Source: Thermodesulfobacteriota bacterium
GTDB lineage: Bacteria; Desulfobacterota; WTBG01; JAGOGO01
Assembly: GCA_026625185.1 (NCBI GenBank)
Contig: CP113000.1
Span: 2,145,622-2,177,621 of the forward strand
Direction: 5' to 3'
DNA length: 32,000 nt
The notes under the pieces are model-generated. The model searched no databases, was not told the origin of the DNA, and was given only the letters and a program-made list of their open reading frames with translations. Below are positions 6,921-30,553 of this stretch, one piece after another. A program made the translations under genes and the position numbers. Numbering within the stretch: the stretch's first letter is position 1; every line of letters starts with the position of its first letter.

Positions 6921-7030
6921 ATCTCTCCTCTTTGCCTCCTCTCCCCACCGGGGAGATGATTGAGGTGAGGGGTAAAATAAAAAGAATTCCCCTCACCCTG
7001 TCCCTCTCACCCGAATGGGGGCGAGGGGAA
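6921..7030. repeat. Two hairpin-repeat copies in the gap between the binding-protein and permease genes
   Basis: The first is cctcctctcccc-accg-gggagatgattgaggtgagggg. The second is ttcccctc(6987-6994)...gaggggaa(7023-7030), enclosing accctgtccctctcacccgaatggggg. Confidence 0.7.
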
Positions 7031-11364: not shown

Positions 11365-11409
11365 TCCTTCACCCTCACCCTGACCCTCTCCCTCAAGGGA
11401 CAGGGAATT
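11365..11409. repeat. Hairpin-repeat copy immediately after the last ABC gene
   Basis: tccttcaccctcaccctgaccctctccct-caa-gggacagggaa. The arms ccctctccc / gggacaggg have one central mismatch. Confidence 0.6.
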
Positions 11410-11600: not shown

Positions 11601-11641
11601 ACCTCATCTACCCTGCGGGGAGAGGACTAAGGAGAGGGGGC
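11601..11641. repeat. Degenerate hairpin-repeat copy
   Basis: acctcatctaccctgcggggagaggactaaggagagggggc contains the family arm motifs GGGGAGAGG and GAGAGGGGG, but the pairing is only weak. Confidence 0.5.
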
Positions 11642-11933: not shown

Positions 11934-11980
11934 CCCCTCACCCATCCCTCTCCCCAGCGGGGAGAGGGATGGGTGAGGGG
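11934..11980. repeat. Best-preserved copy of the hairpin element: a perfect 22-bp stem with a 3-nt loop
   Basis: CCCCTCACCCATCCCTCTCCCC-agc-GGGGAGAGGGATGGGTGAGGGG, verified base by base. It sits between the convergent small ORF and dsrP. No U-tract follows on either strand. Confidence 0.9.
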
Positions 11981-12043: not shown

Positions 12044-13201
12044 CTAACTCCCGACCTCTTCTTTTATCGAGACCGCAATTTTATAAAGCACGGTAAGGAT
12101 CGAAAAACCTATCGCCCAGATCCCGAGAGTGATCAATACTTCCGGCGCCGTGGGGGTATATTCGGTTATTTCTTCCAAGGGTGAGGGAATAAACCCGGTA
12201 ACGACTAAGCCAAGTCCCTTTTCAATCCACAGTGAAACAAATACCGCCACACAAGCCAGGGCCAGGGTCTTCTCGTTTTTCCGGGTGTTCGGATTAATCA
12301 AAAGAAAGGTCGCGCCTACTGCCAGGATCACAAAAGACCACATCCAGGGGACGAGTTTAGTATGACCGTGAAGACCGAAAAACAGATATTGAAAGTGGCT
12401 CATGTGTTCGGGTATTTGGCTGTAAAATGCGGTGAAAAGCTCCATGAGAACAAAAAAGATACTGATGAGCATCGCATAGGTAACAATCTTAGCTAAGGTC
12501 TGGAAGGCTTCTTTCCCGGGATCAAACTTGGAAAATTTTCTTACGATAAAGCCTAAAAGGATAAGCAGCGCGGGACCGGAAGCAAAGGCTGACGCTAAAA
12601 AACGAGGCGCCATAATCGCGGTGAGCCAGAACCCTCTTCCGGGAAGCCCGGCGTAAATAAAGGCAGTGACGGTATGGATGCTAACCGCCCAGGGAATAGA
12701 AAGATAGATAAGAGGTTTAACCCATTTGGGAGGAGGTACATCCGCCCGTTCCGCTGCAAGCACCGTCCAGCCGATCACGATGTTCAACACTAAATAACCA
12801 TTGAGCACGACCATATCCCAGAACAGGATCGAACTTGGAGTAGGGTAGAGTAAAACATTAAAAGCGCGGTCAGGTCGTCCCAGGTCAGCGATGATGAACG
12901 ATAAACACATCGTGACTGAAGCTACCGCGAGGAATTCACCTAAGATGGTTATCCTTCCAAAGAGCTTATAATGATGGAGATAGTAAGGCAAGACCACCAT
13001 AACCGCGGATGCGGCAACCCCTACCAAAAAAGTAAATTGGGCAATGTAGAGCCCCCAGGATACATCGCGGCTCATGCCGGTTATGCCCAAACCAAAGCTT
13101 AATTGTTTTAAATAACAAAAAAAGCCGACAACAATAATGCCGCCTAAAAGAGATAGTAAAGCCCAATATTTTTTACTTCCGGTTAGTGCTTTTTCTAACA
13201 T
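12044..13201 (-). CDS. dsrP: DsrP, NrfD/PsrC-family integral membrane quinone-interacting subunit
   Basis: The product is about 385 aa with about 10 TM helices (NrfD-like). It is the last gene of a dsrMKJOP-ordered cluster. ATG 13201 (MLEKALTGSKKYW) is preceded by GAGGAG, and the ORF-track N-terminal extension to 13354 overlaps dsrO. Confidence 0.85.
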   Translation of the reverse strand: MLEKALTGSKKYWALLSLLGGIIVVGFFCYLKQLSFGLGITGMSRDVSWGLYIAQFTFLVGVAASAVMVVLPYYLHHYKLFGRITILGEFLAVASVTMCLSFIIADLGRPDRAFNVLLYPTPSSILFWDMVVLNGYLVLNIVIGWTVLAAERADVPPPKWVKPLIYLSIPWAVSIHTVTAFIYAGLPGRGFWLTAIMAPRFLASAFASGPALLILLGFIVRKFSKFDPGKEAFQTLAKIVTYAMLISIFFVLMELFTAFYSQIPEHMSHFQYLFFGLHGHTKLVPWMWSFVILAVGATFLLINPNTRKNEKTLALACVAVFVSLWIEKGLGLVVTGFIPSPLEEITEYTPTAPEVLITLGIWAIGFSILTVLYKIAVSIKEEVGS

Positions 13202-13208
13202 AGTCTCC

Positions 13209-13988
13209 TCACGCGATATAATAAATTTGAGGCATTGTCCCCAGCTGTGGTTTTCGTCGGATGGTATGATGAGCACGGAGAAGCCCCCGCAATTCAGAGT
13301 TTGCGTCTTCCAGATCACCAAAAACCAAAGCCTTTTCTTTGCACGCTTCAACACAAGCAGGGATAAGACCTTTAGCGAGCCTTTCGCTGCAAAAATTACA
13401 TTTTTCTACCACCCCTCTCTCCCGGGTGGGGAATTCTTTATTGATTTCCTTGATGAAGGGTCGGGGGTCCCTCCAGTTCAAGCTTCTTGAACCGTAGGGG
13501 CATCCGGCCATGCAGAAACGACAACCAATGCACCGGTGATAATCCATCATGACAATTCCATCCTCACGCTTCCAGGTAGCTTTGGTGGGACAAACTCTCA
13601 CACACGGCGGATTATCGCAGTGGTTACAGAGCGTAATAAACTGACTTCCCTTCAGAGTCTGATCAATGTATTCCTGCATATACACGGTTTCATCGCCCGG
13701 AAACGCTTTTTCATAAGGTTCTTTCCAGATCCACTTCACCTCATCTTTAGGATTCCCCAAATCAGGGACATTATGGACCTGATGACACGCTTTGAGACAG
13801 TCTTGGCAGTCCTCTTTGCATTTTTTCATGTCAATAATCATGGCCCAGCGTTTTCCGGTTAGGGCGTCCGGACTAGGCAAGATTTTTGGTTCTTCATTGA
13901 CGGCCAAAGCTTTTTGGAGGGGCTTAGAGCCTATTCCTAAAAGAGAAATTCCGGCAACTTTTAAAAACGTTCGTTTACTGTTATCCAT
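13209..13988 (-). CDS. dsrO: DsrO, periplasmic 4x[4Fe-4S] ferredoxin-like subunit with a Tat-type signal
   Basis: The signal is MDNSKRTFLKVAGISLLGIG (KR variant of the RR motif). Cys clusters are CNHCDNPPCVRVCP, CIGCRFCMAGCPYG and CNFCSERL...ACVEAC. Its ATG overlaps the dsrJ stop (TAATG). Confidence 0.85.
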   Translation of the reverse strand: MDNSKRTFLKVAGISLLGIGSKPLQKALAVNEEPKILPSPDALTGKRWAMIIDMKKCKEDCQDCLKACHQVHNVPDLGNPKDEVKWIWKEPYEKAFPGDETVYMQEYIDQTLKGSQFITLCNHCDNPPCVRVCPTKATWKREDGIVMMDYHRCIGCRFCMAGCPYGSRSLNWRDPRPFIKEINKEFPTRERGVVEKCNFCSERLAKGLIPACVEACKEKALVFGDLEDANSELRGLLRAHHTIRRKPQLGTMPQIYYIA

Positions 13989-14371
13989 TAACTTTTCTCC
14001 TCAGGGATAATATGGCAGTTCCAGCAAGTTGGTGTTACGCCAACATAGTTATGGCACTGGTCACAGAATTGCTGTTTATTTGAGTGGCAGTTAAGACAGG
14101 TCTTGGTAAGACTCATCGTATAATTTTTTCCGTCGCTGCCTTTATAGGAATACATCTTTTCTCTCACCACCCTGTCTCTCCACTGGATAAGAAGTTTCAT
14201 GTGCGAGTCTCTCATATAGGGAGTAGCCTCGACACACTGCTTTTCCTTGGTAATGATTTTTGGCTCCGGCTTGGTGGCCGCCTTTCCGGTAAACGCATCA
14301 TACCAGAGGGGAAAGGTTATCAGGCAGAGAAAAACAATAAGTCCGGTTATGATCTTGCCCGTGTCATACAT
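13988..14371 (-). CDS. dsrJ: DsrJ, membrane-anchored periplasmic triheme cytochrome c
   Basis: There are three CxxCH motifs (CLNCH, CDQCH, CWNCH) and a single N-terminal TM helix. ATG 14371 (MYDTGKI) has GGAGG 9 nt upstream, and the ORF-track start at 14404 would overlap dsrK. Confidence 0.85.
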   Translation of the reverse strand: MYDTGKIITGLIVFLCLITFPLWYDAFTGKAATKPEPKIITKEKQCVEATPYMRDSHMKLLIQWRDRVVREKMYSYKGSDGKNYTMSLTKTCLNCHSNKQQFCDQCHNYVGVTPTCWNCHIIPEEKS

Positions 14372-14375
14372 GCGA

Positions 14376-15989
14376 TTATTCCTCCAGTTCTTTAAGCGGT
14401 TCACCCCGCAAATCAGTTTCTCTTTCTTTTTCCCCCTTCAACACTAAAGCATTCGCAACCATTTCGTGTATTCCCGTGACCTGGACCCCGGGAGCCCAAT
14501 AATCACAAAGGGGGACGAGCGTGGCACGGTCAATGGCGCACATGCACGCAAGGCGATTTACCCCATGTTTCTCCTGCACATACTTGACGGCATTGCCTCG
14601 CGGCAGTCCGCCCCGAAGCCGCATTTCCATATTCTCATCATTACCTAAACCAGCACCTCCGGCACAACAGAACGTTTTCTCTTTAATAGTATTTTCCGGC
14701 ATATCATAAAACTCCTTGCAGACATTTCTGATGACATACCGGGGTTCTTCAAAAATCCCCATCGCCCGGGCCGGGTTACAGGAATCATGGAAGGTAACTT
14801 TTAATTTGTCATTTCGGCTAGGGTCGAGTTTTAATTTGTTGTGTTTAATGAGGTCGGCAGTAAATTCCATGATGTGGACCATCTTGGTGGACTTGGCATT
14901 TTCAAATTTGGTTCCGGTGATGGGCGAGACCGGTTCTTGAAGAAAGTCAGCCGGTCCATTCATGGTGTCCATGTATTGATGAATTACCCGCCACATATGA
15001 CCGCATTCTCCGCCCAGGATCCATTTTACTCCCAGCCGCTTAGCTTCAGCGTAAATCTTGGCGTTGAGTCGCTTGATCATCTCGTGAGAGGTAAAAAGCC
15101 CGAAGTTTCCTCCTTCCGAAGCGTAGGTGCTCCAGGTATAGTTAAGCCCAAGTTCGTGGAAAAGAATGAGGTAGCCCATACAAGTAAAGGTTCCGGGATC
15201 GGCAAAATAATCACCCGAAGGAGTGACAAACAAAATATCGGCACCCTTTTTGTTGAGGGGTATTTCCACCCGAACCCCGGTGATGTCTTCAATGTCATCG
15301 GCAAAAAATTCGAGGGTATCTTTTAGGGTATGGGGATAGACACCAAGATGATTTCCGGTCATAAAACACTTTGCCGCCGGTTCGAGAGCCCAGTTAATTC
15401 CTAAACCGAGAAGGTAAAGAAGCTCTCGTCCGATCATGGTGATTTCCGCGGTGTCAATTCCATAGGGGCAAAAGACGGAACAGCGCCGGCATTCGGTGCA
15501 CTGATAGAAATAATAGAACCATTCTTTAATGACGGTGGGAGTTAATTCTCGCCCCCCCGCGAGTTTACCCAAAACCTTTCCCGCAGCAGTGAACTCTTTA
15601 CGGTAAATTGACCGGAGGAGTTCCGCTCTTAAGACCGGCATATTTTTTGGGTCGCCGGAGCCAAGAAAGAAATGGCACTTGTCTGCGCAGGCTCCGCACC
15701 GGACGCAAATGTCCATAAAAACTTTAAAAGACCGGTATTTGCTTAAGCGCTCCGCAATGCCATTTACAACGATTTCTTTCCAGTTTTCCGGCAGCTTCCA
15801 GTCTTCCTCCATAGGCGACCACTCCCTCGGAAAAGGCAACTCAAGAATTTTGTGGTTTTTAGAAGCGGCCGGATAATTATACGTGCCGGGTTTAAAATTT
15901 ACCGGCGTATCCATCCAGCCTTTTCGGGGCGGCTGATAATCAATTTTTAAAAGCTCTTCTGGTTTTGGAACACCATCTAATTCAGACAT
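14376..15989 (-). CDS. dsrK: DsrK, HdrD-like catalytic subunit (2 x [4Fe-4S] plus CCG domains)
   Basis: Motifs are CVRCGACADKCHFF, CTECRRCSVFCPYGID and the CCG-domain cysteines (FHDSCNPAR, CCAGGAG). The product is 537 aa. Confidence 0.9.
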   Translation of the reverse strand: MSELDGVPKPEELLKIDYQPPRKGWMDTPVNFKPGTYNYPAASKNHKILELPFPREWSPMEEDWKLPENWKEIVVNGIAERLSKYRSFKVFMDICVRCGACADKCHFFLGSGDPKNMPVLRAELLRSIYRKEFTAAGKVLGKLAGGRELTPTVIKEWFYYFYQCTECRRCSVFCPYGIDTAEITMIGRELLYLLGLGINWALEPAAKCFMTGNHLGVYPHTLKDTLEFFADDIEDITGVRVEIPLNKKGADILFVTPSGDYFADPGTFTCMGYLILFHELGLNYTWSTYASEGGNFGLFTSHEMIKRLNAKIYAEAKRLGVKWILGGECGHMWRVIHQYMDTMNGPADFLQEPVSPITGTKFENAKSTKMVHIMEFTADLIKHNKLKLDPSRNDKLKVTFHDSCNPARAMGIFEEPRYVIRNVCKEFYDMPENTIKEKTFCCAGGAGLGNDENMEMRLRGGLPRGNAVKYVQEKHGVNRLACMCAIDRATLVPLCDYWAPGVQVTGIHEMVANALVLKGEKERETDLRGEPLKELEE

Positions 15990-15992
15990 TTT

Positions 15993-17012
15993 TTACTCCT
16001 TATCCACCGGGATTTCCGCGGCTTTCATCTTTTCCCTAAATTCATCCTCATATTCCTCGTAAGTATGAACTTTTACGGGATAATTCCAGGGGTTGATGTG
16101 TCTTTTGGACCGGTTGTTATTAGCCAAATTTCTGGTTGGACTTAAGAAGACTCCGCCCAGATGCATCAACTTGCTGAACGGAAAATAGGCAATGAGAAGG
16201 CAAACAAAAAAGAGATGGACATAAAATAGAACGCCGATCCCTTCCGGAAGTGCGGGACGAAAGCTAATGAGGCTTAATGCTAATTCCTTTACCTTGATGA
16301 GGTCAACTTTATAAATGTGGCGCATGAACATCCCCGATCCGATGATGCAAAAGAGAAGAAAAAGCGGGAAATAATCAGCCGGAAGGGAAACATAACGAAT
16401 TTTAGGAACCAAGACGCGTCGAAGAAAAAGATGGGTTATTGCCGCCACAATAAGAGCATCAGTTAAATAAAGCGCGGGAACACCAATTTCAAAAAGATTA
16501 TCTAATTTGTCAATGAATTGTATTGCAAAGGGCACCGGCTCGGTAAAAAATCTAAGGTGACGGGTGAGAATGATAAAAAATGACCAGTGAAATGTTAACC
16601 CAGCCAGCCATAGCCACTTTGCCGACCAATGAATTAACTTGGGCCCTTCATTGAGCTCAGTATTTGTGTTCCGAAAAAGTGAGCGAAAAAGAAGCACTTC
16701 CAGTGCCAGTCTTTTGATGACATCGAGCGTAGTAAAAGGGCTTTCCAGGCGGTTGGCTTTTATCCAGTCGAGAGATTTTTCCTGTCCGCAGACCGTGGTG
16801 ATCCGGAACGGAACCGGAGATTTTGCCCAGCTTAGGATGCGATAAAGAAAACCCATTAAAAATATCGCTAATGCAAGGTAGGGTATAAAAATCCCAAAAA
16901 CATTCTCCAAATGAGTATAGCTGACGACTCCTAACACTAACAATAAAAGGAACAAAATAATAATAAACGGTAACATGATGCTCATAATAAAGGTCATTTT
17001 AATGTGCCTCAC
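15993..17012 (-). CDS. dsrM: DsrM, NarI-like dihaem b membrane subunit
   Basis: The product is about 335 aa with 5-6 TM helices and a NarI/HdrE-like layout, and it sits directly upstream of dsrK. The start is either GTG 17012 (GTGA overlap with the upstream gene) or ATG 16997 (GAGG 9 nt upstream). Confidence 0.8.
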   Translation of the reverse strand: MRHIKMTFIMSIMLPFIIILFLLLLVLGVVSYTHLENVFGIFIPYLALAIFLMGFLYRILSWAKSPVPFRITTVCGQEKSLDWIKANRLESPFTTLDVIKRLALEVLLFRSLFRNTNTELNEGPKLIHWSAKWLWLAGLTFHWSFFIILTRHLRFFTEPVPFAIQFIDKLDNLFEIGVPALYLTDALIVAAITHLFLRRVLVPKIRYVSLPADYFPLFLLFCIIGSGMFMRHIYKVDLIKVKELALSLISFRPALPEGIGVLFYVHLFFVCLLIAYFPFSKLMHLGGVFLSPTRNLANNNRSKRHINPWNYPVKVHTYEEYEDEFREKMKAAEIPVDKE

Positions 17013-17551
17013 TTTTTATATGATTTACTTTTAGTTTTTTCTTCTGGTGTTTTGGGTATACGGTTTAATCTTCTTACCAGACCGGAATACCTGTTTTTTA
17101 CCTCATTGGCCCTCAGTTCAAATACTTTTTCACGACATTCCACATAACGATTGAAAGCCGCCAAGGCGAGTTCATCAATTTTAGACTCAAAGGTCAAAAA
17201 CTCATCGAACAATTCTTTTTCTTTAAACTCTTTTTTTAATTCATCTCTAATCACCTTTTTGAGCATAAAGATGAAGGAAAGCGCCTGGGCAGGGGTGAAT
17301 TCTTGGACCGCTCGAATATGGATAATGCGATCCAAAAAGGAGGAAATTTGTTTATGATTACCTTCCTTAATAAGTCCATCAAACAAATCCTCTATTCCCT
17401 TAAAAATAGTTGCGCCAACCGGATTTGCAAAAGGATCATTTTCATTCTTTAAAAATGTGGCGGTTTCTTCCGGATAGGTTCGCAGAACAAGGTGAAACCA
17501 TTTTTTTACCAGAGCTGGTTTGTGTTGGGATAAAATTTCCTCGAATTTCAT
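17009..17551 (-). CDS. RsbRD_N-like domain protein (function unknown), first gene of the dsr operon
   Basis: A 180-aa soluble helical protein. Blocks LVKKWFHLVLRTYPEETATFLKNENDPFANPVG and RIIHIRAVQEFTPAQALSFIF match my recollection of the RsbRD N-terminal domain family. Its stop overlaps the dsrM start. Confidence 0.55.
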   Translation of the reverse strand: MKFEEILSQHKPALVKKWFHLVLRTYPEETATFLKNENDPFANPVGATIFKGIEDLFDGLIKEGNHKQISSFLDRIIHIRAVQEFTPAQALSFIFMLKKVIRDELKKEFKEKELFDEFLTFESKIDELALAAFNRYVECREKVFELRANEVKNRYSGLVRRLNRIPKTPEEKTKSKSYKK

Positions 17552-22029: not shown

Positions 22030-22956
22030 TTATTCAACCTTAGGCCGGGGCAAAAGTCCAGCCTCCTGGGTAATGCCGGGAACCATTTCCTCCCACTCAA
22101 TCGCCATGATATGAACTCCGTGCACCCCTTTTATTTCTCTCAACTGCTGGATGGTTTCCACTGATATTTTTATTCCTTCATCGGCCTGTTTTTCTTTGGG
22201 TACCCCCTTTAATCGGGCTATCAAGTTATCGGGGACATCCATGCCGGGAACCATCTTTTTCATGTAGTTCGCCATACCCAAAGATTTCATGGGGGTTACT
22301 CCTCCTAAGATATGGACTTTTTCATGGAGCCCACGATCTCTTACCAGTTGCATCCACTGCTTAAAACGATCCAGGTTATAGATACATTGGGTCTGGATAA
22401 ACTGAGCTCCGGCCGCGACCTTTTTTGCCAGCCGAACAACCCGAAATTCGAAGGGGTCGGCAAATGGATTCGCCGCAGCGCCGATAAAAAATCGAGGCTT
22501 CCCTTTAATGTCATCACCCCCCAAAAATTTTCCTTCATCGCGCATCTGCTTCACGGTTTGGATTAAATGGATGGAATCAAGGTCGTAGACATTTTTTGCT
22601 TTGCCATGGTCTCCAAATTTCTGATGGTCGCCTGAAAGGCAGAGGATGTTATTGATTCCTAAGGCAGCCGCCCCTAAGATATCGCTTTGGATAGCGATCC
22701 GGTTACGGTCCCGGGTTACCATCTGTAAAACCGGATTGATACCCATCTGCTTTAGTATAACACATGAAGAAAAACTTGACATCCGTACTACCGAAGTCTG
22801 GTTATCGGTGACATTGATCGCATCCACGGAATCTTTGATCAGCGCCCCCTTTTTTTGGATGACCTCAGGATCTGCTCCTCGGGGAGGACCGCATTCTGAG
22901 GTTACGGCAAAGTCTCCCCGCGATAAAATTTTTTCTAAACGACTGTCGGACGTCAT
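22030..22956 (-). CDS. metF: Methylenetetrahydrofolate reductase, acetogen/sulfate-reducer type MetF
   Basis: MTHFR-family blocks are present (AVTSECGPPRG, DAINVTDN, QMVTRDRNR, GINNILCLSGD, FFIGAAANPF, GAQFIQTQ). ATG 22956 overlaps the metV stop (ATGA). The ORF-track start at 23013 is an upstream extension. Confidence 0.85.
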   Translation of the reverse strand: MTSDSRLEKILSRGDFAVTSECGPPRGADPEVIQKKGALIKDSVDAINVTDNQTSVVRMSSFSSCVILKQMGINPVLQMVTRDRNRIAIQSDILGAAALGINNILCLSGDHQKFGDHGKAKNVYDLDSIHLIQTVKQMRDEGKFLGGDDIKGKPRFFIGAAANPFADPFEFRVVRLAKKVAAGAQFIQTQCIYNLDRFKQWMQLVRDRGLHEKVHILGGVTPMKSLGMANYMKKMVPGMDVPDNLIARLKGVPKEKQADEGIKISVETIQQLREIKGVHGVHIMAIEWEEMVPGITQEAGLLPRPKVE

Positions 22957-23621
22957 AGCGTTAAATCCTCCCTGATAATTTTCCGAGGTCCCCCATCCCG
23001 ACCGGTAGACCAATCATTAATGGGAATAATAATTTCTAATTGATCTAACTTCCCCAGCTCTTTAAGCCGGTCATAGATGAGCTGCCACCCACAGTCAACC
23101 TCCGGGTTTACTTCGCACTTTCCTTTTGAAGAACCTCCACACGGGCCATTCAAAAGACTCTTGGCGCAACGACTAATAGGACAAATTCCACCGGTAATAT
23201 GGAGTTTACAATCACCGCACGCTTGACACCGCTCGGTCCATACTCCTTGCGTTTCGGTAACGCCGATGAAATTGGTGTCTATCCCCGGGTACATGGGGAT
23301 CTTCCTAAATTTTTCCGCCATAAACTGCACTCCCGCACCGCAGGCAATTGAGACAACTGCCTCATATTCATCCACAAAACTGCGGATCGTTTCGAGGTAT
23401 TCCGGGTCGCACTGCCGTTCTAAGGTTACTTCTTTAATTTCGATGGGTTTGCCGTCCGTTTCTCTCGCCAGGGAAAGAGCAGCGGAAAGAATTCCCACCT
23501 CCTTTTCTCCCCCGGCAGAACAGACCGTTACGCAGCCTCGACATCCGGCGACAATTATTTTTGAACAGTTCTCAATCATGGCCAGAATGTTTTTAATGGG
23601 TTTACCCTTGCCGATAATCAT
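22953..23621 (-). CDS. metV: MetV (MTHFR C-terminal-domain-like Cys-rich small subunit)
   Basis: A 222-aa product with the Cys-rich segment CQACGDCKLHITGGICPISRCAKSLLNGPCGGS..GKCEV. Its position directly upstream of metF, with ATGA coupling, matches the hdrCBA-mvhD-metVF arrangement described in Moorella thermoacetica. Confidence 0.75.
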   Translation of the reverse strand: MIIGKGKPIKNILAMIENCSKIIVAGCRGCVTVCSAGGEKEVGILSAALSLARETDGKPIEIKEVTLERQCDPEYLETIRSFVDEYEAVVSIACGAGVQFMAEKFRKIPMYPGIDTNFIGVTETQGVWTERCQACGDCKLHITGGICPISRCAKSLLNGPCGGSSKGKCEVNPEVDCGWQLIYDRLKELGKLDQLEIIIPINDWSTGRDGGPRKIIREDLTL

Positions 23622-23745
23622 AATAATGCCTCCTCAAAAATCGTTTAATACCAAACGCTTTCATATGTATATCTTTGTTGTCTCCTCATCATACTCCTCG
23701 ATGTACTAATACCAACGCATTAAACCTTATTACACCTGATGGTTT

Positions 23746-23790
23746 CTCCCCTCACTTTATCCCTATCGGGGAGAGGGGAAGGTGAGGGGG
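23746..23790. repeat. Hairpin-repeat copy inside the operon, between mvhD and metV
   Basis: The outer arms are CCCCTCAC (23748-55) / GTGAGGGG (23782-89). The inner part is tccc-tatc-gggga. Confidence 0.7.
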
Positions 23791-23806
23791 ACTCATGTCA
23801 AAAAGT

Positions 23807-24274
23807 TTAAACAACACATTCTTTTTTCTCCGGTGTTGCAGAGTACTCTAATGCGGCTGATGCAACACGTTTTATTGGGTTTGGGCCGAGTTTTTTAATT
23901 CTTTCAGTCATTTCCTTGGCGATTTCAACAAACCGGGGGCCTTGCGCTGCGGACATATTGTACATTTCAAGCCGTTCCCCTCCGATTCCAATTTCATCTA
24001 AAATCTTTTTGGTAAATTCAACCCTTTTTCGGGCCCGGAGATTTCCGGTAAGATAATGGCAGTCTCCTTCCATACATCCGGCTACATACACTCCGTCGGC
24101 TCCGCGCTGGAAGGACTTTAAAAGGTAAAGCACATCAACTTTTCCCGTACAAGGAACCTGAATAATTTTTATGTTTGGTGGATAAGAGAGTCTCATGGAA
24201 CCTGCCAGGTCCGCAGCTGAATACGCTCAGTATTTGCAGCAGAAGGCTAAGATCTCCGGTTGAAATTCGCTCAT
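23807..24274 (-). CDS. mvhD: MvhD/FlpD-like [2Fe-2S] electron-transfer subunit containing an in-frame UGA (codon 16, 24229-24227), a probable selenocysteine
   Basis: From ATG 24274 (ATGA overlap with the hdrA stop) the frame reads MSEFQPEILAFCCKY-TGA-AYSAADLAGSMRLSYPPNIKIIQVPCTGKVDVLYLLKSFQRGADGVYVAGCMEGDCHY. This is the MvhD N-terminal pattern (iaFcC.wC.Y..AD.AG...YP.n.riirv.CsGrvd), with the TGA at the position of the conserved Cys. A hairpin GGACC-UGGCA-GG(U)UCC lies at 24212-24197. Confidence 0.75.
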
Positions 24275-27200
24275 GCAACATTCTCCTTAAACAGCGCGCT
24301 TGATTTAGTAATAATCTGTTCATCCTTAAAATGCTGCAGTTGGATTGCCTTGCCCGGACATTCAGCCGCACAGGAGCCACAGCCCTGACATAGGGCCACA
24401 TCAATCTGCGCTACTCCCTGCTCATTGATAAAGGGCACCTTATAGGGACAAACGCGAACACAGGTAAGGCACGCCGCACATTTTTTTTCCTCGACCTGAG
24501 CCACGATTCCACTTACCATAATCGTATCATGAGCGAGAATGGTGCAGGCCCGCGAAACCGCAGCCTTGGCCTGAGAAAGGCTTTCATCTAATGGTTTAGG
24601 CGAATGCGCCAGACCACACAAAAATATTCCTTCAGTAGCAAAATCAACCGGTCTCAATTTCATATGAGCTTCAAGGAAGAAATTTTCCTGCGTGCGCTGT
24701 AACTTCATTAAAGTAGCGAGTTCTTCATTGTCCCGGGGGATAATGCCGCTGCTTAAGATAAGCAGATCGGAATTGATAACGATGGTCTCTCTTAAAGAAG
24801 GATCAAAGACTGAAACCCGAAGGCTTTCTTTTTCGAGACTTGTCTCGGGCTTATTGTCTAAGTCATACCGGATAAAGATTACTCCTGCTTTCCGGGCTTT
24901 TGTGTAGTAGTCCTCCAGAAAACCATAGGTGCGAATATCACGGTAGATAATATAGATATGCGCATTCGGATTTATTTCTTTAATTTTAAGAGCATTTTTA
25001 ATCGCACTGCTGCAACAAATTCGGCTACAATAAGGTCGCTCAGGGATTCGCGAACCCACACATTGAATCATTACTATTTCTTGGAGGTCTTTAGGGTCAA
25101 TCTCTTTATGAACAATCCTCCCTTCGAGTTCGTGTTGAGTCATAATGCGCTCGTCGTGACCATAAAAGTATTCTTTCGGCTTATATTCTTCTCCACCGGT
25201 AGCAATTATCGTTACCCCGTGTTCTATCTTACGGTAAGCCATTCCAGGGCCGGACATAATACCGGTTTTAAAATTTCCCTTAAAACCACCGGCATCCACA
25301 ATCACCCCATTCAGGATTATCTGTATAAGAGGGTGATTGTGTACCTTTTCGATCAGAGAATGCATAAACTCCTGAACATTATTCCCATGGATGGTGTAGT
25401 AGAGGTCACGGAGGTTTCCTCCCAATTGTTTTTCTTTTTCCACCAGAACAACTTCAAATCCTTGATCGGCCAACCCTAATGCTGCGGTCATTCCCGCAGC
25501 ACCACCTCCAACCACGAGCGCTCTTTTATTAATTTTCAGTTCTTGTTCATGCAATGGTTCCGTTAAGCTGGCTTTGGCGATGGCCATCCGTACCAGGTTT
25601 TTGGCTTTTTCGGTAGCTTCCTTCTTTTTGTCCATATGCACCCACGAGCACTGATCCCTGATATTCGCCATTTCAAAAAGGTATTTATTAAGCCCCGCGT
25701 CCCGTATCGTTTCTTGAAAGAGGGGTTCATGCGTCCGGGGTGAACAGGAGGCAACCACCACCCGGTTAAGTTGCTTTTCTTGGATAACTTCTCTGATTTT
25801 GGCTTGGTTGTCCTGTGAACAGGTATAAAGGTTTTCCTCCACATACACGATATGGGGAAGGGTTTTTGCGTATTCCTTCACTGAGGGGACATCCACGATA
25901 CCACCAATATTGATTCCGCAATGGCAGATAAAAACTCCAATTCGTGGTTCTTCGCCGGCAATACTTTGTTCAGGGGGTAACTCCTTTATAGTTACTAATT
26001 CACCCCGGGCACTAGAGATAATCTCCGAGGCAAAGGCAGCCGCTCCACTTGCCTGGGAGACGGTTTCGGGGATATCTTTGGGCGACTGGAAAGTGCCGCA
26101 AACATAAACCCCCGGTCGTGACGTCTCCATGGGACTTAAAGAAGCAGTTTGGCAGAAGCTATACGGAGTGAGTTTGATGCCGAGCGTTTGTGCCAAGTTT
26201 CGCGATTTTTCTGAAGCACTCATGCCAAGAGAAAGCACGACCAGCTCAAACTCCTCTTCAACTATTTTTCCGCCTTCATCAACATAGGCAATCAGAAGGT
26301 TTTTAGATTTAGGACGTTCTATGATCTTTGATATCTGGCACCTAATAAAACGGACGCCGTAATCATCACGGGCTCTTTCATAGTACTGGTCGAACCCTTT
26401 GCCATGCGCCCTAATGTCCATATAGAAAATGGTGGGTCTAACTTCAGGGTCGTGCTCGCGGGCAATAATGGCTTCTTTGGTGGCATACATGCAGCATACC
26501 GAAGAACAATAACCTTTGTTGATAGAAGGGTCCCGGGAGCCGACACACTGTATCCAGGCAATACGCTTCGGCTCAGCATGATCTGAAGGACGACAGATAT
26601 GTCCCTGAAAAGGGCCAGAGGCCGAGAGAATCCTTTCAAACTCTAGACTGGTGAGTACATTCTGATACCGGCCATAACCATACTCACCTCTCACCTCTGG
26701 ATTTGTGAGTTGATAACCCGGAGCGAGAATAATAGAACCAACCTGGATATCGAGTTTCTGGTCTGTCTGGGAAAAATCAATGGCTTTCGCAGGGCAGAGC
26801 TTCTCACACGCGCGGCATTTCCCCTTTTGAAAATAAATACACATATCCTTGTCTATAACAGGAATGTTTGGTATCGCCTGAAGATAAGGTACATAGATCG
26901 CTTTTCGCGTCCCCATACCTTGCTCAAATTCACTGAGGGTTTTCTGGGGACACTTCTCTTGGCACGTGCCACATCCGGTGCATAATGATTCATTGACATA
27001 CCGAGCATGTTTTAATATCTTCGCACTCATATTGCCTGGTTCACCCTGAATGTCTAACAGTTCGGAATAGGTGAGAAGTTCGATATTTGGATGTCGTCCG
27101 CATTCCACAAGCTTAGGTGATAAGATGCACATAGCGCAATCATTGGTGGGAAATGTCTTATCCAGTTGGGCCATTCTCCCCCCAATGGCCGGACTTTCTT

Positions 27201-27333
27201 CAACCATATAGACCTTAAATCCACTGTTGGCTAAATCGAGTGAAGCTTGGATACTACCCACACCACCCCCTACCAGGAGTACTGCACCGACCGGGGTTTT
27301 TTGATTTTGCTGCGTTACTATTTGTTGCTTCAT
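24271..27333 (-). CDS. hdrA: Large HdrA-like flavoprotein (about 1020 aa) with two FAD/NAD Rossmann modules
   Basis: aa numbering follows the 1024-aa ORF-track translation from GTG 27345. It has GGGVGS (aa 26-31) followed by LDKTFPTNDCAMCILSPK, and an inserted 2x[4Fe-4S] ferredoxin (CTGCGTCQEKCP, CRACEKLCP). CVGSRD...YCSSVCC is at aa 267-285. The HdrA N-domain-like VFICHCGINIGG is at aa 471. A second GGGAAG is at aa 613-618 and a second CVGSRIPERPYCSRICC at aa 762-778. The C-terminal ferredoxin is CAACLTCVRVCP and CQGCGSCAAECP. The start is ATG 27333 or GTG 27345. Confidence 0.85.
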   Translation of the reverse strand: MKQQIVTQQNQKTPVGAVLLVGGGVGSIQASLDLANSGFKVYMVEESPAIGGRMAQLDKTFPTNDCAMCILSPKLVECGRHPNIELLTYSELLDIQGEPGNMSAKILKHARYVNESLCTGCGTCQEKCPQKTLSEFEQGMGTRKAIYVPYLQAIPNIPVIDKDMCIYFQKGKCRACEKLCPAKAIDFSQTDQKLDIQVGSIILAPGYQLTNPEVRGEYGYGRYQNVLTSLEFERILSASGPFQGHICRPSDHAEPKRIAWIQCVGSRDPSINKGYCSSVCCMYATKEAIIAREHDPEVRPTIFYMDIRAHGKGFDQYYERARDDYGVRFIRCQISKIIERPKSKNLLIAYVDEGGKIVEEEFELVVLSLGMSASEKSRNLAQTLGIKLTPYSFCQTASLSPMETSRPGVYVCGTFQSPKDIPETVSQASGAAAFASEIISSARGELVTIKELPPEQSIAGEEPRIGVFICHCGINIGGIVDVPSVKEYAKTLPHIVYVEENLYTCSQDNQAKIREVIQEKQLNRVVVASCSPRTHEPLFQETIRDAGLNKYLFEMANIRDQCSWVHMDKKKEATEKAKNLVRMAIAKASLTEPLHEQELKINKRALVVGGGAAGMTAALGLADQGFEVVLVEKEKQLGGNLRDLYYTIHGNNVQEFMHSLIEKVHNHPLIQIILNGVIVDAGGFKGNFKTGIMSGPGMAYRKIEHGVTIIATGGEEYKPKEYFYGHDERIMTQHELEGRIVHKEIDPKDLQEIVMIQCVGSRIPERPYCSRICCSSAIKNALKIKEINPNAHIYIIYRDIRTYGFLEDYYTKARKAGVIFIRYDLDNKPETSLEKESLRVSVFDPSLRETIVINSDLLILSSGIIPRDNEELATLMKLQRTQENFFLEAHMKLRPVDFATEGIFLCGLAHSPKPLDESLSQAKAAVSRACTILAHDTIMVSGIVAQVEEKKCAACLTCVRVCPYKVPFINEQGVAQIDVALCQGCGSCAAECPGKAIQLQHFKDEQIITKSSALFKENVA

Positions 27334-27396
27334 TCCTCTTAACACTTTTTTTAAGGTTTAAACTTTTAAAAACCTTGAAACCCGACAATGAACCCG

Positions 27397-28251
27397 TCAC
27401 ATTAGTTGCTTTGCTTTCAATAAAGGCCGAGGATCCGTGAGATGACGGCGAAACCATCTTTGCGTACCTTTAAGACCCAAGGCTAATCCCAAAAGTTCAG
27501 TAAAATAAAAAACCGGAAGGTTATAGGTAATCCCCTTAGCCTTTCCAATTTCTTCCTGACGAGTATCCAGATTAGCCAGGCAGAGCGGGCAGGCAGTGAC
27601 AATGCAGTCAGCTTCTGCTTCTCGCGCCATATCGAGAATCCGGCCAATCAATCTCCGAACAATATCAAGGTTGGTTAATAGTAAACTACCGCCGCAGCAT
27701 TCGGTCTTATACGGCCAAAAAATACTCTCTCCTCCCATTAAAGAGATTAAATTATCCAGAGCTTGAGGATCTTCCCAATTCTTGGCATCAGTAATCTGGG
27801 GAGGCCGGACGATAAGGCAGCCATAATAACTCACTACCTTTAAGTTTGAAAGGGGGCGTTTGACCTGGTCTTTTATTATCTCGATTAAATCTTCTCGGGA
27901 GAAAAACTCTAGGAGGTGTAGAACTTTGATCTCTCCCCTAAACGGGGTAGAAGCATCTATTTCTTTAGATTCTTTGGTGAGAGCTTTTTCTGCGGCTTTG
28001 AGACGGCTAAAACAGGCTGCGCAAGGAGTAACTAGATCGTGTTTGAGCTTTTCAGCTAATAATAAATTTCTTGCCGGAAGGCTGACAGAAAGAAACTCAT
28101 TAATACAATGGGCAGCGCTTGCTCCGCAACAGGTCCAGCCGGGTAATTCTTCGAGTTTGATGCCGAGAAAAGAAGAAACTACATCAATTGATTCACCGTA
28201 TTCTCGAGCTGTTCCTTCCAGGGAGCAGCCAGGAAAGAAAGAAGCTTTCAT
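27397..28251 (-). CDS. hdrB: HdrB-like subunit (two CCG domains)
   Basis: MKASFFPGCSLEGTA...WTCCGAS in the first CCG domain and VSYYGCLIVRP...TECCGGS...TACPLC in the second. The product is 284 aa. Its ATG overlaps the hdrC stop. Confidence 0.85.
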   Translation of the reverse strand: MKASFFPGCSLEGTAREYGESIDVVSSFLGIKLEELPGWTCCGASAAHCINEFLSVSLPARNLLLAEKLKHDLVTPCAACFSRLKAAEKALTKESKEIDASTPFRGEIKVLHLLEFFSREDLIEIIKDQVKRPLSNLKVVSYYGCLIVRPPQITDAKNWEDPQALDNLISLMGGESIFWPYKTECCGGSLLLTNLDIVRRLIGRILDMAREAEADCIVTACPLCLANLDTRQEEIGKAKGITYNLPVFYFTELLGLALGLKGTQRWFRRHLTDPRPLLKAKQLM

Positions 28252-28850
28252 GATTTCTTATGTTCCTTGGCCTGGTCAAAAAGTTTACGTAATTCTTCTA
28301 CCCCTTTTTTTGAGGGGGGCAATAATTTTAACTTGCCCCGGAGAAACATTTTTATTCCTAACCGCAGGTCATTTTTCCATTCTCCGCTCTTGATCGTATC
28401 ACTAATACCACCGCTTTGTCGGAGAAAATTGGTCAGCAGAGATAGCTCATGAATGCGGCCGAACTTTTTTATGGTATTGAGGAATGTTCTATGAAAAATA
28501 GGAACCTTTGGCTCTTTTGCCTCGGTTCCGCTCTCAACCTGGATTTGTCTTAGGACATCCATCACTTTGGCAATATCAATCTCGTTCGGGCAGCGGGTGG
28601 TACAGGTTTCACAGGAAGCGCAGATCCAGATGGTCCGGGAAGACAAAGCTTTCTCCCTTTGTAGTAACAAGACTGACCTTATGACCTGATGGGGAAGAAG
28701 GTCCATGACAAAAGCTACCGGGCAACCTGCCGAGCACTTGCAACATTGATAACAGCTGAAGATTGCTTCTCCTAATGCTTCAACGACCAGATCTCGAAAT
28801 CGGGTATCTCGGTTTACGGTAACGGGTAAAGAAATCAGCTTGGTTTCCAT
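28248..28850 (-). CDS. hdrC: HdrC-like subunit (2 x [4Fe-4S] ferredoxin)
   Basis: Cys motifs are CYQCCKCSAGCPV and CASCETCTTRCPNEID. The product is 200 aa. Confidence 0.85.
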   Translation of the reverse strand: METKLISLPVTVNRDTRFRDLVVEALGEAIFSCYQCCKCSAGCPVAFVMDLLPHQVIRSVLLLQREKALSSRTIWICASCETCTTRCPNEIDIAKVMDVLRQIQVESGTEAKEPKVPIFHRTFLNTIKKFGRIHELSLLTNFLRQSGGISDTIKSGEWKNDLRLGIKMFLRGKLKLLPPSKKGVEELRKLFDQAKEHKKS

Positions 28851-28948: not shown

Positions 28949-29821
28949 TTAACTTTCTACCTGGTCCAAAACCGGTGCAAGTTTTTCCTCCTCACCAATG
29001 GCCACCAGCAATACACCTCGACAGAGGTGTTTCAGCTTTTGGATGGTTTCCGCGGCGATAGCAATCCCTTCTTTGATCTTGTCCGGGGCTTTCCCCATGC
29101 GGTCAATTATTTCTTCCGGAATCACCACACCCTCAATATGGCGGGACATAAACCGGGCCATTCCCACTGATTTGAGGACAATGACCTGGGGAAAGACCGG
29201 GACTTTAAAAGGAGATACTTTTTTCAAGAAATTTTCAAAAAGGTTCAAATCATACAAAGGAGGGGTAAAAAAATAATTTGCACCGGCTTTGATTTTTTTT
29301 TCCATTCCGAGAATTTCCAATTCCAGCGCTCCTCTTTGTAATCCCGCATTTACTTCTGATCCCACGCAAAAAATAGGGATTCCTGAGAGTTCATTGCCGA
29401 TCAAGTCGGTCCCTTTCTGGAATTTCTTGATAGCCTCTAATAAAGCAATTTCATCGAGGTCATGTACCGGCTTCGCCTCAATGTGGTCACCACTGGTAAT
29501 TTCATCTCCCTTACTGATCAAAAGATTTTTTAAACCCAAAGAAAAAGCGCTGAGAAGATCGGCTTGGAGCGCCAGACGGTTACGATCGCGGCAATGGAAA
29601 TTTACGATGGGTTCTAACCCTTTTTGTTTTAAGAGAACCGAAGCACCAAGTGAACCCATCCTCATTATAGCTCCGCTTAGTTCCGGCACTAACACCGCAT
29701 GGACTCTTCCTTTAAGGGAGTCGGCGGATCGCACGAGTTGAGCGGTGTCGATCCCCTTGGGTGGTTCTAACTGGGCGATGATTAAAAACTGGTTGGAATC
29801 TAACAGGCTTTCAAAATGCAT
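28949..29821 (-). CDS. Second, divergent MTHFR-family (MetF-like) protein
   Basis: It is collinear with metF at 22030-22956: QLEPPKG vs SECGPPRG, FHCRDRNR vs MVTRDRNR, LKNLLISKGD vs INNILCLSGD, VHDLD vs VYDLD, and AGANYFFTPPLYD vs AGAQFIQTQCIYN. ATG 29821 (MHFESLL) has GGAAGGAG upstream. Confidence 0.75.
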   Translation of the reverse strand: MHFESLLDSNQFLIIAQLEPPKGIDTAQLVRSADSLKGRVHAVLVPELSGAIMRMGSLGASVLLKQKGLEPIVNFHCRDRNRLALQADLLSAFSLGLKNLLISKGDEITSGDHIEAKPVHDLDEIALLEAIKKFQKGTDLIGNELSGIPIFCVGSEVNAGLQRGALELEILGMEKKIKAGANYFFTPPLYDLNLFENFLKKVSPFKVPVFPQVIVLKSVGMARFMSRHIEGVVIPEEIIDRMGKAPDKIKEGIAIAAETIQKLKHLCRGVLLVAIGEEEKLAPVLDQVES

Positions 29822-29857
29822 AATAGCTCCTTCCCTTTGTGTGGGACGCATTACCAA

Positions 29858-30244
29858 TCAACGCGTCACGGGCCTCTCGATGGCATTTTGTACTGCTAAT
29901 AATAACTCTTCCGTACCAAAGGATTTTACGTGGTAGTAAAAAGGTTTCTGACGAAGGATACGGACTTCGAGATCAGGCGTGTTGTGGGTGGACGTAATGA
30001 TAATCGGCAAACCAGGCTCAAGTTCTTTTATAATTGCAACGGCTACATCCCAGGCCATGTCTTTCACGTCTACGTCAAAGACCAAAACGGAAATATGTTC
30101 TTTTTGAATGGTGCGAATAGATTCTAAGGCTTGGTCGGTTGTATTCGTGATCAACCCATCCTTTCGTAAGATCAAGTAGATTTTTTTCGCTAGTTTTTTG
30201 TCAGGCTCAACAATAAGAATTTTTTTTCTTTCCATTCCATCCAT
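29858..30244 (-). CDS. Orphan receiver-domain protein with an atypical acidic pocket; first gene of the operon
   Basis: KKILIVEPDKKL has E-P-D where D-D is usual. A phospho-acceptor-like VLVFDVDV, IIITSTH (conserved T/S) and YHVKSF (conserved K) are present. The product is about 128 aa with no output domain. Confidence 0.65.
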   Translation of the reverse strand: MDGMERKKILIVEPDKKLAKKIYLILRKDGLITNTTDQALESIRTIQKEHISVLVFDVDVKDMAWDVAVAIIKELEPGLPIIITSTHNTPDLEVRILRQKPFYYHVKSFGTEELLLAVQNAIERPVTR

Positions 30245-30553
30245 CACACGTGACGATTACTGGCAAATTTGAGGGTTGTAATTTTTTTCAGCTGGAGTTT
30301 TTAATAAGAAGTAAACCAAAAATCATACCAACACCTAAGATAAGTATAAAAACTGGTGATGGAGAAATAAAGTTAATAGATTAAGTATGTTAAACGGAAA
30401 AAAAGAAAAATAAAAAGAAGAAGGGATCACTATTTTATTTGGGATAAGGGTAAAATAGCCACACGAAATTGTAAGTATCAATTAATATATTGAAATAATT
30501 GCAAATAATAAAAACAGGGAGAATAGTAACAATGGGGAAAAATTACCCAGGAT

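Follow-up and report, generated by a model that had tools for sequence, protein, structure and literature searches.

Positions 23807-24274 of the minus strand in the window, the 32,000-nt stretch of DNA that was analysed as a whole, very probably encode a full-length, 155-residue MvhD/FlpD [2Fe-2S] protein in which the UGA at codon 16 is decoded as selenocysteine (Sec). The DNA comes from an uncultured bacterium of the Thermodesulfobacteriota. The Sec reading, which had been proposed in a preliminary description of the same DNA, is supported by the continuity of the reading frame, by a match to the FlpD family that runs across the TGA, by a column in which relatives have either TGA or a Cys codon, and by a hairpin that is linked to the TGA.

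Reading frame and start of mvhD

The sole mvhD entry in the list of open reading frames (ORFs) is a 129-aa ORF that begins at Met27 (Table 1). Read from the ATG at 24274-24272, the same frame gives MSEFQPEILAFCCKY-TGA-AYSAADLAGSMRLSYPP..., with no other stop upstream of the 129-aa ORF, and residues 15-28 form the tryptic peptide Y-U-AYSAADLAGSMR. When the sequence was re-read, the preliminary coordinates of the 129-aa ORF, the upstream frame, the ATG and the TGA all proved correct, and the gene is indeed mis-annotated as truncated, as had been supposed, in that ORF callers drop its first 26 residues. The overlap of the start codon with the stop of the 1024-aa hdrA-like ORF as ATGA was also seen as described, at 24274-24271. 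The same ATGA junction is found in relatives, and this overlap of the hdrA stop with the mvhD start suggests that the two genes are translationally coupled. The Shine-Dalgarno context AAGGAG-N8-ATG is kept in four of the close relatives (L004-L007).

Table 1. Positions of mvhD, its putative recoding elements and the neighbouring features in the window
Feature	Position	Strand	Remarks
MTHFR-like gene	28949-29857	minus	Pfam E 1.1e-24; second, more divergent copy upstream of hdrC
hdrC	28248-28850	minus	Pfam Fer4_8/Fer4_17
hdrB	27397-28251	minus	two CCG domains
hdrA-like flavoprotein gene	24271-27345	minus	1024 aa; predicted MvhD partner; Pfam; PDB HdrA E 7.8e-213
Shine-Dalgarno AAGGAG	24283-24288	minus	8 nt before ATG 24274-24272
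True start codon ATG	24272-24274	minus	overlaps hdrA TGA stop (24271-24273) as ATGA
Full mvhD (FlpD family) CDS	23807-24274	minus	155 codons + TAA 23809-23807; U at codon 16
In-frame UGA, predicted Sec codon	24227-24229	minus	residue 16; motif C13-K-Y-U16 = CxxU
Extended predicted SECIS fold, lower stems included	24186-24228	minus	-12.8 kcal/mol
Invariant 17-nt putative SECIS core GCGGACCUGGCAGGUUC	24198-24214	minus	begins 12 nt past UGA
Apical hairpin GGACC-UGGCA-GGUUC	24212-24198	minus	15-29 nt 3' of UGA
Apical stem	24212-24207 paired with 24203-24198	minus	loop GGC 24206-24204
129-aa ORF as listed	23807-24196	minus	sole mvhD entry in ORF list
Internal Met27 codon	24194-24196	minus	taken as start by ORF callers
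Palindromic motif site, mvhD-metV spacer	23622-23806		contains 11-nt inverted repeat 23748-23758 / 23779-23789
metV	22953-23621	minus	Pfam DUF5981 (MTHFR C-terminal) E 2.3e-39
metF	22030-23013	minus	Pfam MTHFR E 1.6e-41
dsrMKJOP-like gene set	12044-17551	minus
Palindromic motif, other sites	87-139, 522-544, 6937-7027, 11384-11393, 11617-11626, 11946-11968

Match to the FlpD family across the UGA

With Cys put in at codon 16, the 155-residue product matched the FlpD/MvhD family of Pfam (PF02662) with an E-value of 1.4e-51 and a score of 174.1 bits, against a gathering cutoff of 22.3. Profile positions 1-123 of 123 lie on residues 8-130 of MvhD, and because the profile is aligned from its position 1, the FlpD domain begins upstream of the TGA; the conceptual product had been expected to align with FlpD, and it does so end to end across the TGA. 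VhuD/MvhD chains in the PDB gave matches with E-values of 4.6e-49 to 8.5e-39, whose spans begin at residues 1-5 and end at residues 131-138. The best of them is chain K of 9SFI, VhuD of the Methanococcus maripaludis Hdr-Vhu-Fwd complex (E 4.6e-49), in which codon 16 of mvhD aligns with X14, the first non-standard residue of the chain (AFVCYQ-X-GYGAADLAG), and the second non-standard residue stands at the position of Cys67 of MvhD. In an alignment with homologues, the cysteine set of the [2Fe-2S] site shows no variation at C42, C67 and C72, and its N-terminal part consists of C12, C13 and the UGA at position 16. Around the UGA column, 20 full-length homologues show the motif AFCC-x-Y-C-[AS]-Y-x-AADLAG.

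A genome scan with one genome per species (GTDB representatives) gave the 80 closest species loci (L008-L087), which come mostly from metagenome-assembled genomes (MAGs) of Thermodesulfobacteriota, Desulfobacterales and Syntrophales, the best being a Thermodesulfobacteriota MAG (DATEXU01, L008) at 95% identity. The codon at the UGA column is TGA in 32 of these 80 loci, TGC in 31 and TGT in 17, and TAA, TAG and codons for other amino acids were found in none. The claim that the UGA occupies a conserved Cys column is thus upheld both by the full-length homologues (Cys in 20/20) and by the genome loci without TGA (Cys in 48/48). Such alternation of TGA with Cys only is the classical signature of a Sec/Cys pair.

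Known selenoproteins of the family

The family precedent to which the preliminary description appealed is real, and is found in M. maripaludis VhuD, Desulfobacterium autotrophicum, Desulfococcus multivorans and BamF. In a 2026 review, MvhD/VhuD (PF02662) is among the selenoproteins with experimental verification, with the motif CxxU and two Sec, and Sec-mvhD genes are noted to cluster in Deltaproteobacteria. M. maripaludis VhuD has the same full-length domain as the protein of the window, the same C-x-x-U motif, an HdrA partner and a [2Fe-2S] relay role. It differs in being archaeal and in carrying the second non-standard residue where the window protein has Cys67. Moreover, the archaeal SECIS lies in the 3' UTR, according to PMC13188914, whereas the element of the window mvhD lies inside the coding sequence. 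VhuD links Hdr to a [NiFeSe] hydrogenase or Fdh, but the window mvhD adjoins metV/metF, without hydrogenase genes.

Bacterial examples are closer in kind. Published descriptions give mvhD1, 2, 3 and 5 of D. autotrophicum HRM2, whose genome has selABCD and 31 selenoproteins, as Sec genes, and D. multivorans dmul_C28840/50 as an mvhD annotated with UGA and SECIS, in a genome with selA, selB and selD. By these descriptions, the mvhD genes of both species are likewise bacterial, have a UGA and a SECIS, and lie directly downstream of hdrA/hdrL-type genes. In a cryo-EM study of the class II benzoyl-CoA reductase of Geobacter metallireducens, the MvhD homologue BamF carries Sec19, which by its position and motif would share the column of U16. 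Compared with the MvhD of the window, BamF has extra domains and over 100 additional residues, and it is part of the benzoyl-CoA reductase complex.

A hairpin linked to the UGA

The 17-mer GCGGACCTGGCAGGTTC is present in all 36 distinct TGA-type genes and in none of the 47 distinct Cys-type genes. The Cys-type genes serve as a natural control, as they encode the same downstream peptide, A-D-L-A-G-S-M-R-L. From +5 to +9, the codons GCG (Ala), GAC (Asp), CTG (Leu), GCA (Ala) and GGT (Gly) are each used in 36/36 TGA-type genes, compared with 28/47, 22/47, 24/47, 10/47 and 12/47 Cys-type genes, respectively, so that the codon entropy is 0 bits in the former and 1.0-2.1 bits in the latter. Given the codon frequencies of the Cys-type genes, about 0.8% of sequences would be expected to show all five codons together. 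The two groups vary to the same extent at the flanking codons (-10 to -1, +1 to +4 and +12 to +29). Among the fetched loci, 1.2 Mb in all, the 15-nt core occurs 40 times, every time at exactly +18 from an mvhD TGA. The invariance of the 17-mer does not reflect recent ancestry, because the TGA-type genes lie on several deep branches of a neighbour-joining tree, interleaved with Cys-type clades, and their pairwise protein identity goes down to 58%, with a median of 70%.

The core folds into a hairpin of six pairs, which, counted from the U of the UGA, are G18-C32, G19-U31, A20-U30, C21-G29, C22-G28 and U23-A27, with the loop G24-G25-C26. This 6-bp apical hairpin is the only structure returned by RNAalifold for 33 sequences, and all six pairs are kept in 33/33 of them; the helix is invariant and so shows no compensatory changes. 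The candidate SECIS of the preliminary description stands in its position, 15-29 nt 3' of the UGA, and its strict linkage to the TGA gives it much stronger support, but the term 'bulged' was slightly off, since a G-U wobble pair forms there and no bulge is needed.

The 15-mer hairpin has a folding energy of -4.5 kcal/mol (z -1.93). The extended fold, assessed over 50-71 nt past the UGA, is no better than shuffled sequences (z -0.55 and -0.31), and the TGA-type sequences fold less stably than the GC-richer Cys-type ones. For these two reasons, the minimum free energy (MFE) was dropped as evidence and the constraint on synonymous sites was preferred. The lower stems differ between subfamilies and show no convincing covariation, and hence it is the apical hairpin alone that is well supported. 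An outer helix (columns 4-9 with 45-50) was considered and rejected, as it is confined to the subfamily that has Gly at +1 and is omitted by RNAalifold; its covariation is weak, with 2 pairs and 10 cells, and 10-30 of 500 shuffles reach the same. A search of Rfam at the gathering threshold and at E<=10 matched no family.

The bSECISearch consensus model of Zhang and Gladyshev (2005), as summarised in PMC13188914, describes a bacterial SECIS (bSECIS) as having a loop of 3-9 nt, an upper stem of 4-16 bp, an MFE of -7.5 kcal/mol or lower, a spacing of 16-37 nt from the UGA, and a G at the first or second position of the loop, whose pattern is N1-G-[G|U]-N-N2 with N1 paired to N2. As predicted from the sequence, the mvhD hairpin agrees with all four published constraints: it has a GGC loop with 6 bp, or a UGGCA loop with 5 bp; the loop reads U-G-G-C-A with a U-A pair; the spacing is 19-20 nt (with UGA as 1-3, the loop starts at 23/24); and the MFE of the 50-nt element is -12.8 kcal/mol, at a z of only -0.31 against shuffles. 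The element thus shares loop size, stem length, loop G pattern, spacing and MFE with the bSECIS consensus. Unlike bSECIS elements in general, it is unusually invariant in sequence across the whole gene family.

The UGA could also be read through without Sec, either by suppression with a near-cognate tRNA(Cys/Trp) or by a generic, SelB-free hairpin read-through. The shortness of the hairpin would fit such a process, as would the fact that no gene for the Sec machinery (selA, selB, selD or tRNA-Sec) was found in the window or in 32 related TGA-type loci, the flanks of which are so short that their silence is uninformative. Against it, the UGA column alternates with Cys only, the motif and position equal those of the experimentally verified Sec site of VhuD, and the loop sequence and spacing of the hairpin fit the SelB-type bSECIS model. 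In addition, related Desulfobacterales carry selABCD together with annotated Sec-mvhD genes. Read-through without Sec is accordingly held to be very improbable, and decoding as Sec is preferred.

Translation upstream of the UGA

If instead the UGA were a real stop, the 15 codons before it would not belong to the gene, which would either give a 129-aa product starting at Met27 or be a pseudogene in decay. Gene callers do give 129 aa for mvhD and for all of its close relatives: in a protein search that covered 5.8 billion proteins, the relatives at 86-100% identity are all called as about 129 aa and cover only 83% of the query, and those at 65-79% identity are 140-171 aa long. There is also a weak AGG 6 nt upstream of the ATG at 24196. 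The earlier remark that this ATG is without a good Shine-Dalgarno sequence is nevertheless borne out, since the strong AAGGAG and the ATGA coupling are found at 24274 and not at 24196. The truncated product would be missing the first strand of FlpD together with its C12/C13/C16 cluster, and in the full-length Cys-type homologues Met27 lies inside the protein and is nearly invariant (GSMRL).

The DNA of the relatives speaks against a stop in the same way. All of the '129-aa' relatives L001-L007 have the same in-frame TGA, preceded by 15 conserved codons in which most of the differences are synonymous (CCG/CCA, GCC/GCT, AAA/AAG, TGC/TGT); a genuine short N-terminus, sought among the orthologues, was found in none, the '129-aa' relatives being TGA-type genes with an intact, conserved upstream frame. 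Across the TGA-type genes, which reach down to 58% identity as stated above, the amino acids at codons -10 to -1 are kept and the synonymous codons are mixed (Pro CCG/CCT/CCC/CCA, Ala GCA/GCT/GCC/GCG, Phe TTT/TTC, Cys TGC/TGT), and therefore the upstream codons are translated. Synonymous variation is seen on both sides of the UGA in the 36 distinct TGA-type sequences, and in these 36 distinct genes the stop is always TGA and never TAA or TAG. The recurrence of the TGA together with the upstream frame in 36 distinct relatives is far beyond chance. A true stop at this codon is even less probable than read-through without Sec, and the full-length, Sec-containing product remains the preferred reading.

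An error of sequencing or assembly in a TGC or TGT Cys codon has a negligible probability: an assembly artefact does occur nearby, where a poly-A run in the hdrA of L001 differs in length by 2 nt, but the site of the TGA is not a homopolymer, TGA stands at it in 32 other genomes, and this explanation is effectively ruled out because the identical mvhD sequence, with the same TGA and flanks, was assembled three times independently, in two JGI metagenomes and in one NCBI assembly. A genome-wide reassignment of TGA was likewise rejected, as TGA otherwise acts as a normal stop in the window, where it ends 11 of the 26 ORFs, hdrA included.

Gene neighbourhood

On the minus strand, the cluster has the order hdrC-hdrB-hdrA-mvhD-metV-metF, and the order is the same in relatives. 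An HdrABC-MvhD-MetVF complex has been described in Moorella (PMC5736913, PMC6085437). The cluster of the window has the same gene composition and order as the Moorella type, and the Moorellaceae MvhD homologues P0060 and P0092 are 66-67% identical to the window MvhD over the full length. The MvhD proteins of Firmicutes differ in having Cys at the UGA position and in being without the hairpin, and an extra MTHFR-like gene, located upstream of hdrC, sets the cluster of the window apart from that of Moorella.

At the CxxU site of HdrA, which is occupied by Sec197 in methanogens, the HdrA-like protein carries Cys instead (NDCAMC), and MvhD is therefore the only selenoprotein candidate in the operon. 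When compared with archaeal HdrA (654 aa), residues 32-394, 465-637 and 873-1021 of the HdrA-like protein correspond to residues 156-514, 2-174 and 501-652, respectively; judged from this alignment, the predicted protein is a duplicated or permuted double-flavin HdrA, and it is reminiscent of the two-FAD BamE of Geobacter. In L001, a poly-A run of hdrA (L001:300-312, about 24480-24495 of the window) differs in length, A6 versus A8, and splits the hdrA call of L001 in two. The split was considered as a second recoding site and rejected because of this 2-nt difference in poly-A length, which is probably a homopolymer assembly artefact.

A scan of the window for other genes interrupted by TGA returned only junctions of adjacent genes and off-frame noise, which leaves MvhD as the sole selenoprotein candidate of the window and gives no second gene to corroborate the use of Sec. 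One such junction involves a 129-aa ORF at 29858-30247, which ends in a TGA directly in frame with the MTHFR-like gene at 28949-29857, and it is read as two adjacent genes and not as a Sec site.

Two further features of the window were noted. A G/C-rich palindromic motif, CCCTCTCCCC / GGGGAGAGGG, has 14 matches at no more than one mismatch, compared with 2.5 expected; none of 100 shuffles reaches 14 matches, and the sites lie mostly outside the listed ORFs. One site is the mvhD-metV spacer, which is 185 nt long in the window and 43 nt in L005, and this difference in length suggests a small REP- or MITE-like insertion. The dsrMKJOP-like gene set comprises genes for an RsbRD_N protein, a Nitrate_red_gam protein (DsrM-like), a 537-aa Fer4 protein (DsrK-like), a small protein of 127-138 aa, a Fer4_11 protein (DsrO-like) and a 436-aa ORF that is DsrP-like by position only. 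By their predicted products, these genes are consistent with a sulfate- or sulfite-reducing Thermodesulfobacteriota host and point to a dissimilatory sulfur metabolism.

Proposed role of Sec16

From the established bacterial Sec pathway, SelB carrying Sec-tRNA(Sec) would be expected to bind the hairpin through its G-rich apical loop (U-GGC-A) and to deliver Sec at the UGA, so that release factor 2 would not terminate translation there. By analogy with homologues, MvhD may dock on the adjacent HdrA-like flavoprotein, and its [2Fe-2S] cluster may relay single electrons in a flavin-based electron-bifurcating complex of the HdrABC-MvhD-MetVF type (methylene-tetrahydrofolate reductase). Sec16, located in the CxxU motif beside the cluster, would take the place of a redox-active Cys, and a selenenylsulfide may arise between it and a Cys nearby. 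Judged from where it lies and from the motif, Sec16 is most likely redox-active and adjacent to the [2Fe-2S] relay from which the HdrA flavin receives electrons.

Implications

The selenoprotein family, the Sec site and the bacterial lineage are known already, and what is new is only this mis-annotated member; because the family, the position of Sec and the bacterial precedent are all published, current understanding is unchanged. The main value of the finding concerns annotation quality. The mvhD of the window and all of its close relatives stand in the databases as 129-aa proteins with a truncated N-terminus that lack three of the conserved redox-active Cys/Sec residues, and such truncated calls mislead the modelling, expression or counting of selenoproteins in these uncultured, sulfate-reducer-like bacteria. 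Annotations of mvhD could be repaired with the pattern TGA-N12-GCGGACCTGGCAGGTTC as a nucleotide marker. Moreover, the comparison of Sec-type and Cys-type genes is an unusually clean natural control for the synonymous-site constraint that a SECIS element imposes.

The family-wide invariant SECIS core that is strictly linked to the TGA may be new. At least four Sec/Cys switches are placed on the neighbour-joining tree, with Sec as the root state under midpoint rooting; a tree of this kind from a 129-residue protein is weak evidence for repeated replacement of Sec by Cys, and among the mvhD loci of the 80 genomes it hints at such replacements. A broader proposal, which we hold tentatively and regard as somewhat likelier to fail than to hold, is that the Sec-mvhD genes of Thermodesulfobacteriota share an invariant 17-nt SECIS core down to 58% identity, and that Sec would be ancestral, with at least four independent Sec-to-Cys replacements. 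If this is true, the invariant core would imply an unusually sequence-specific recognition of the SECIS by SelB in Thermodesulfobacteriota. The finding at mvhD points to a selenium requirement of the Hdr-MvhD-MetVF module in this lineage, and, if the broader proposal holds, the methylene-tetrahydrofolate reductase/Hdr step of the Wood-Ljungdahl pathway would be selenium-dependent in a large share of these anaerobes, 32 of the 80 closest species genomes.
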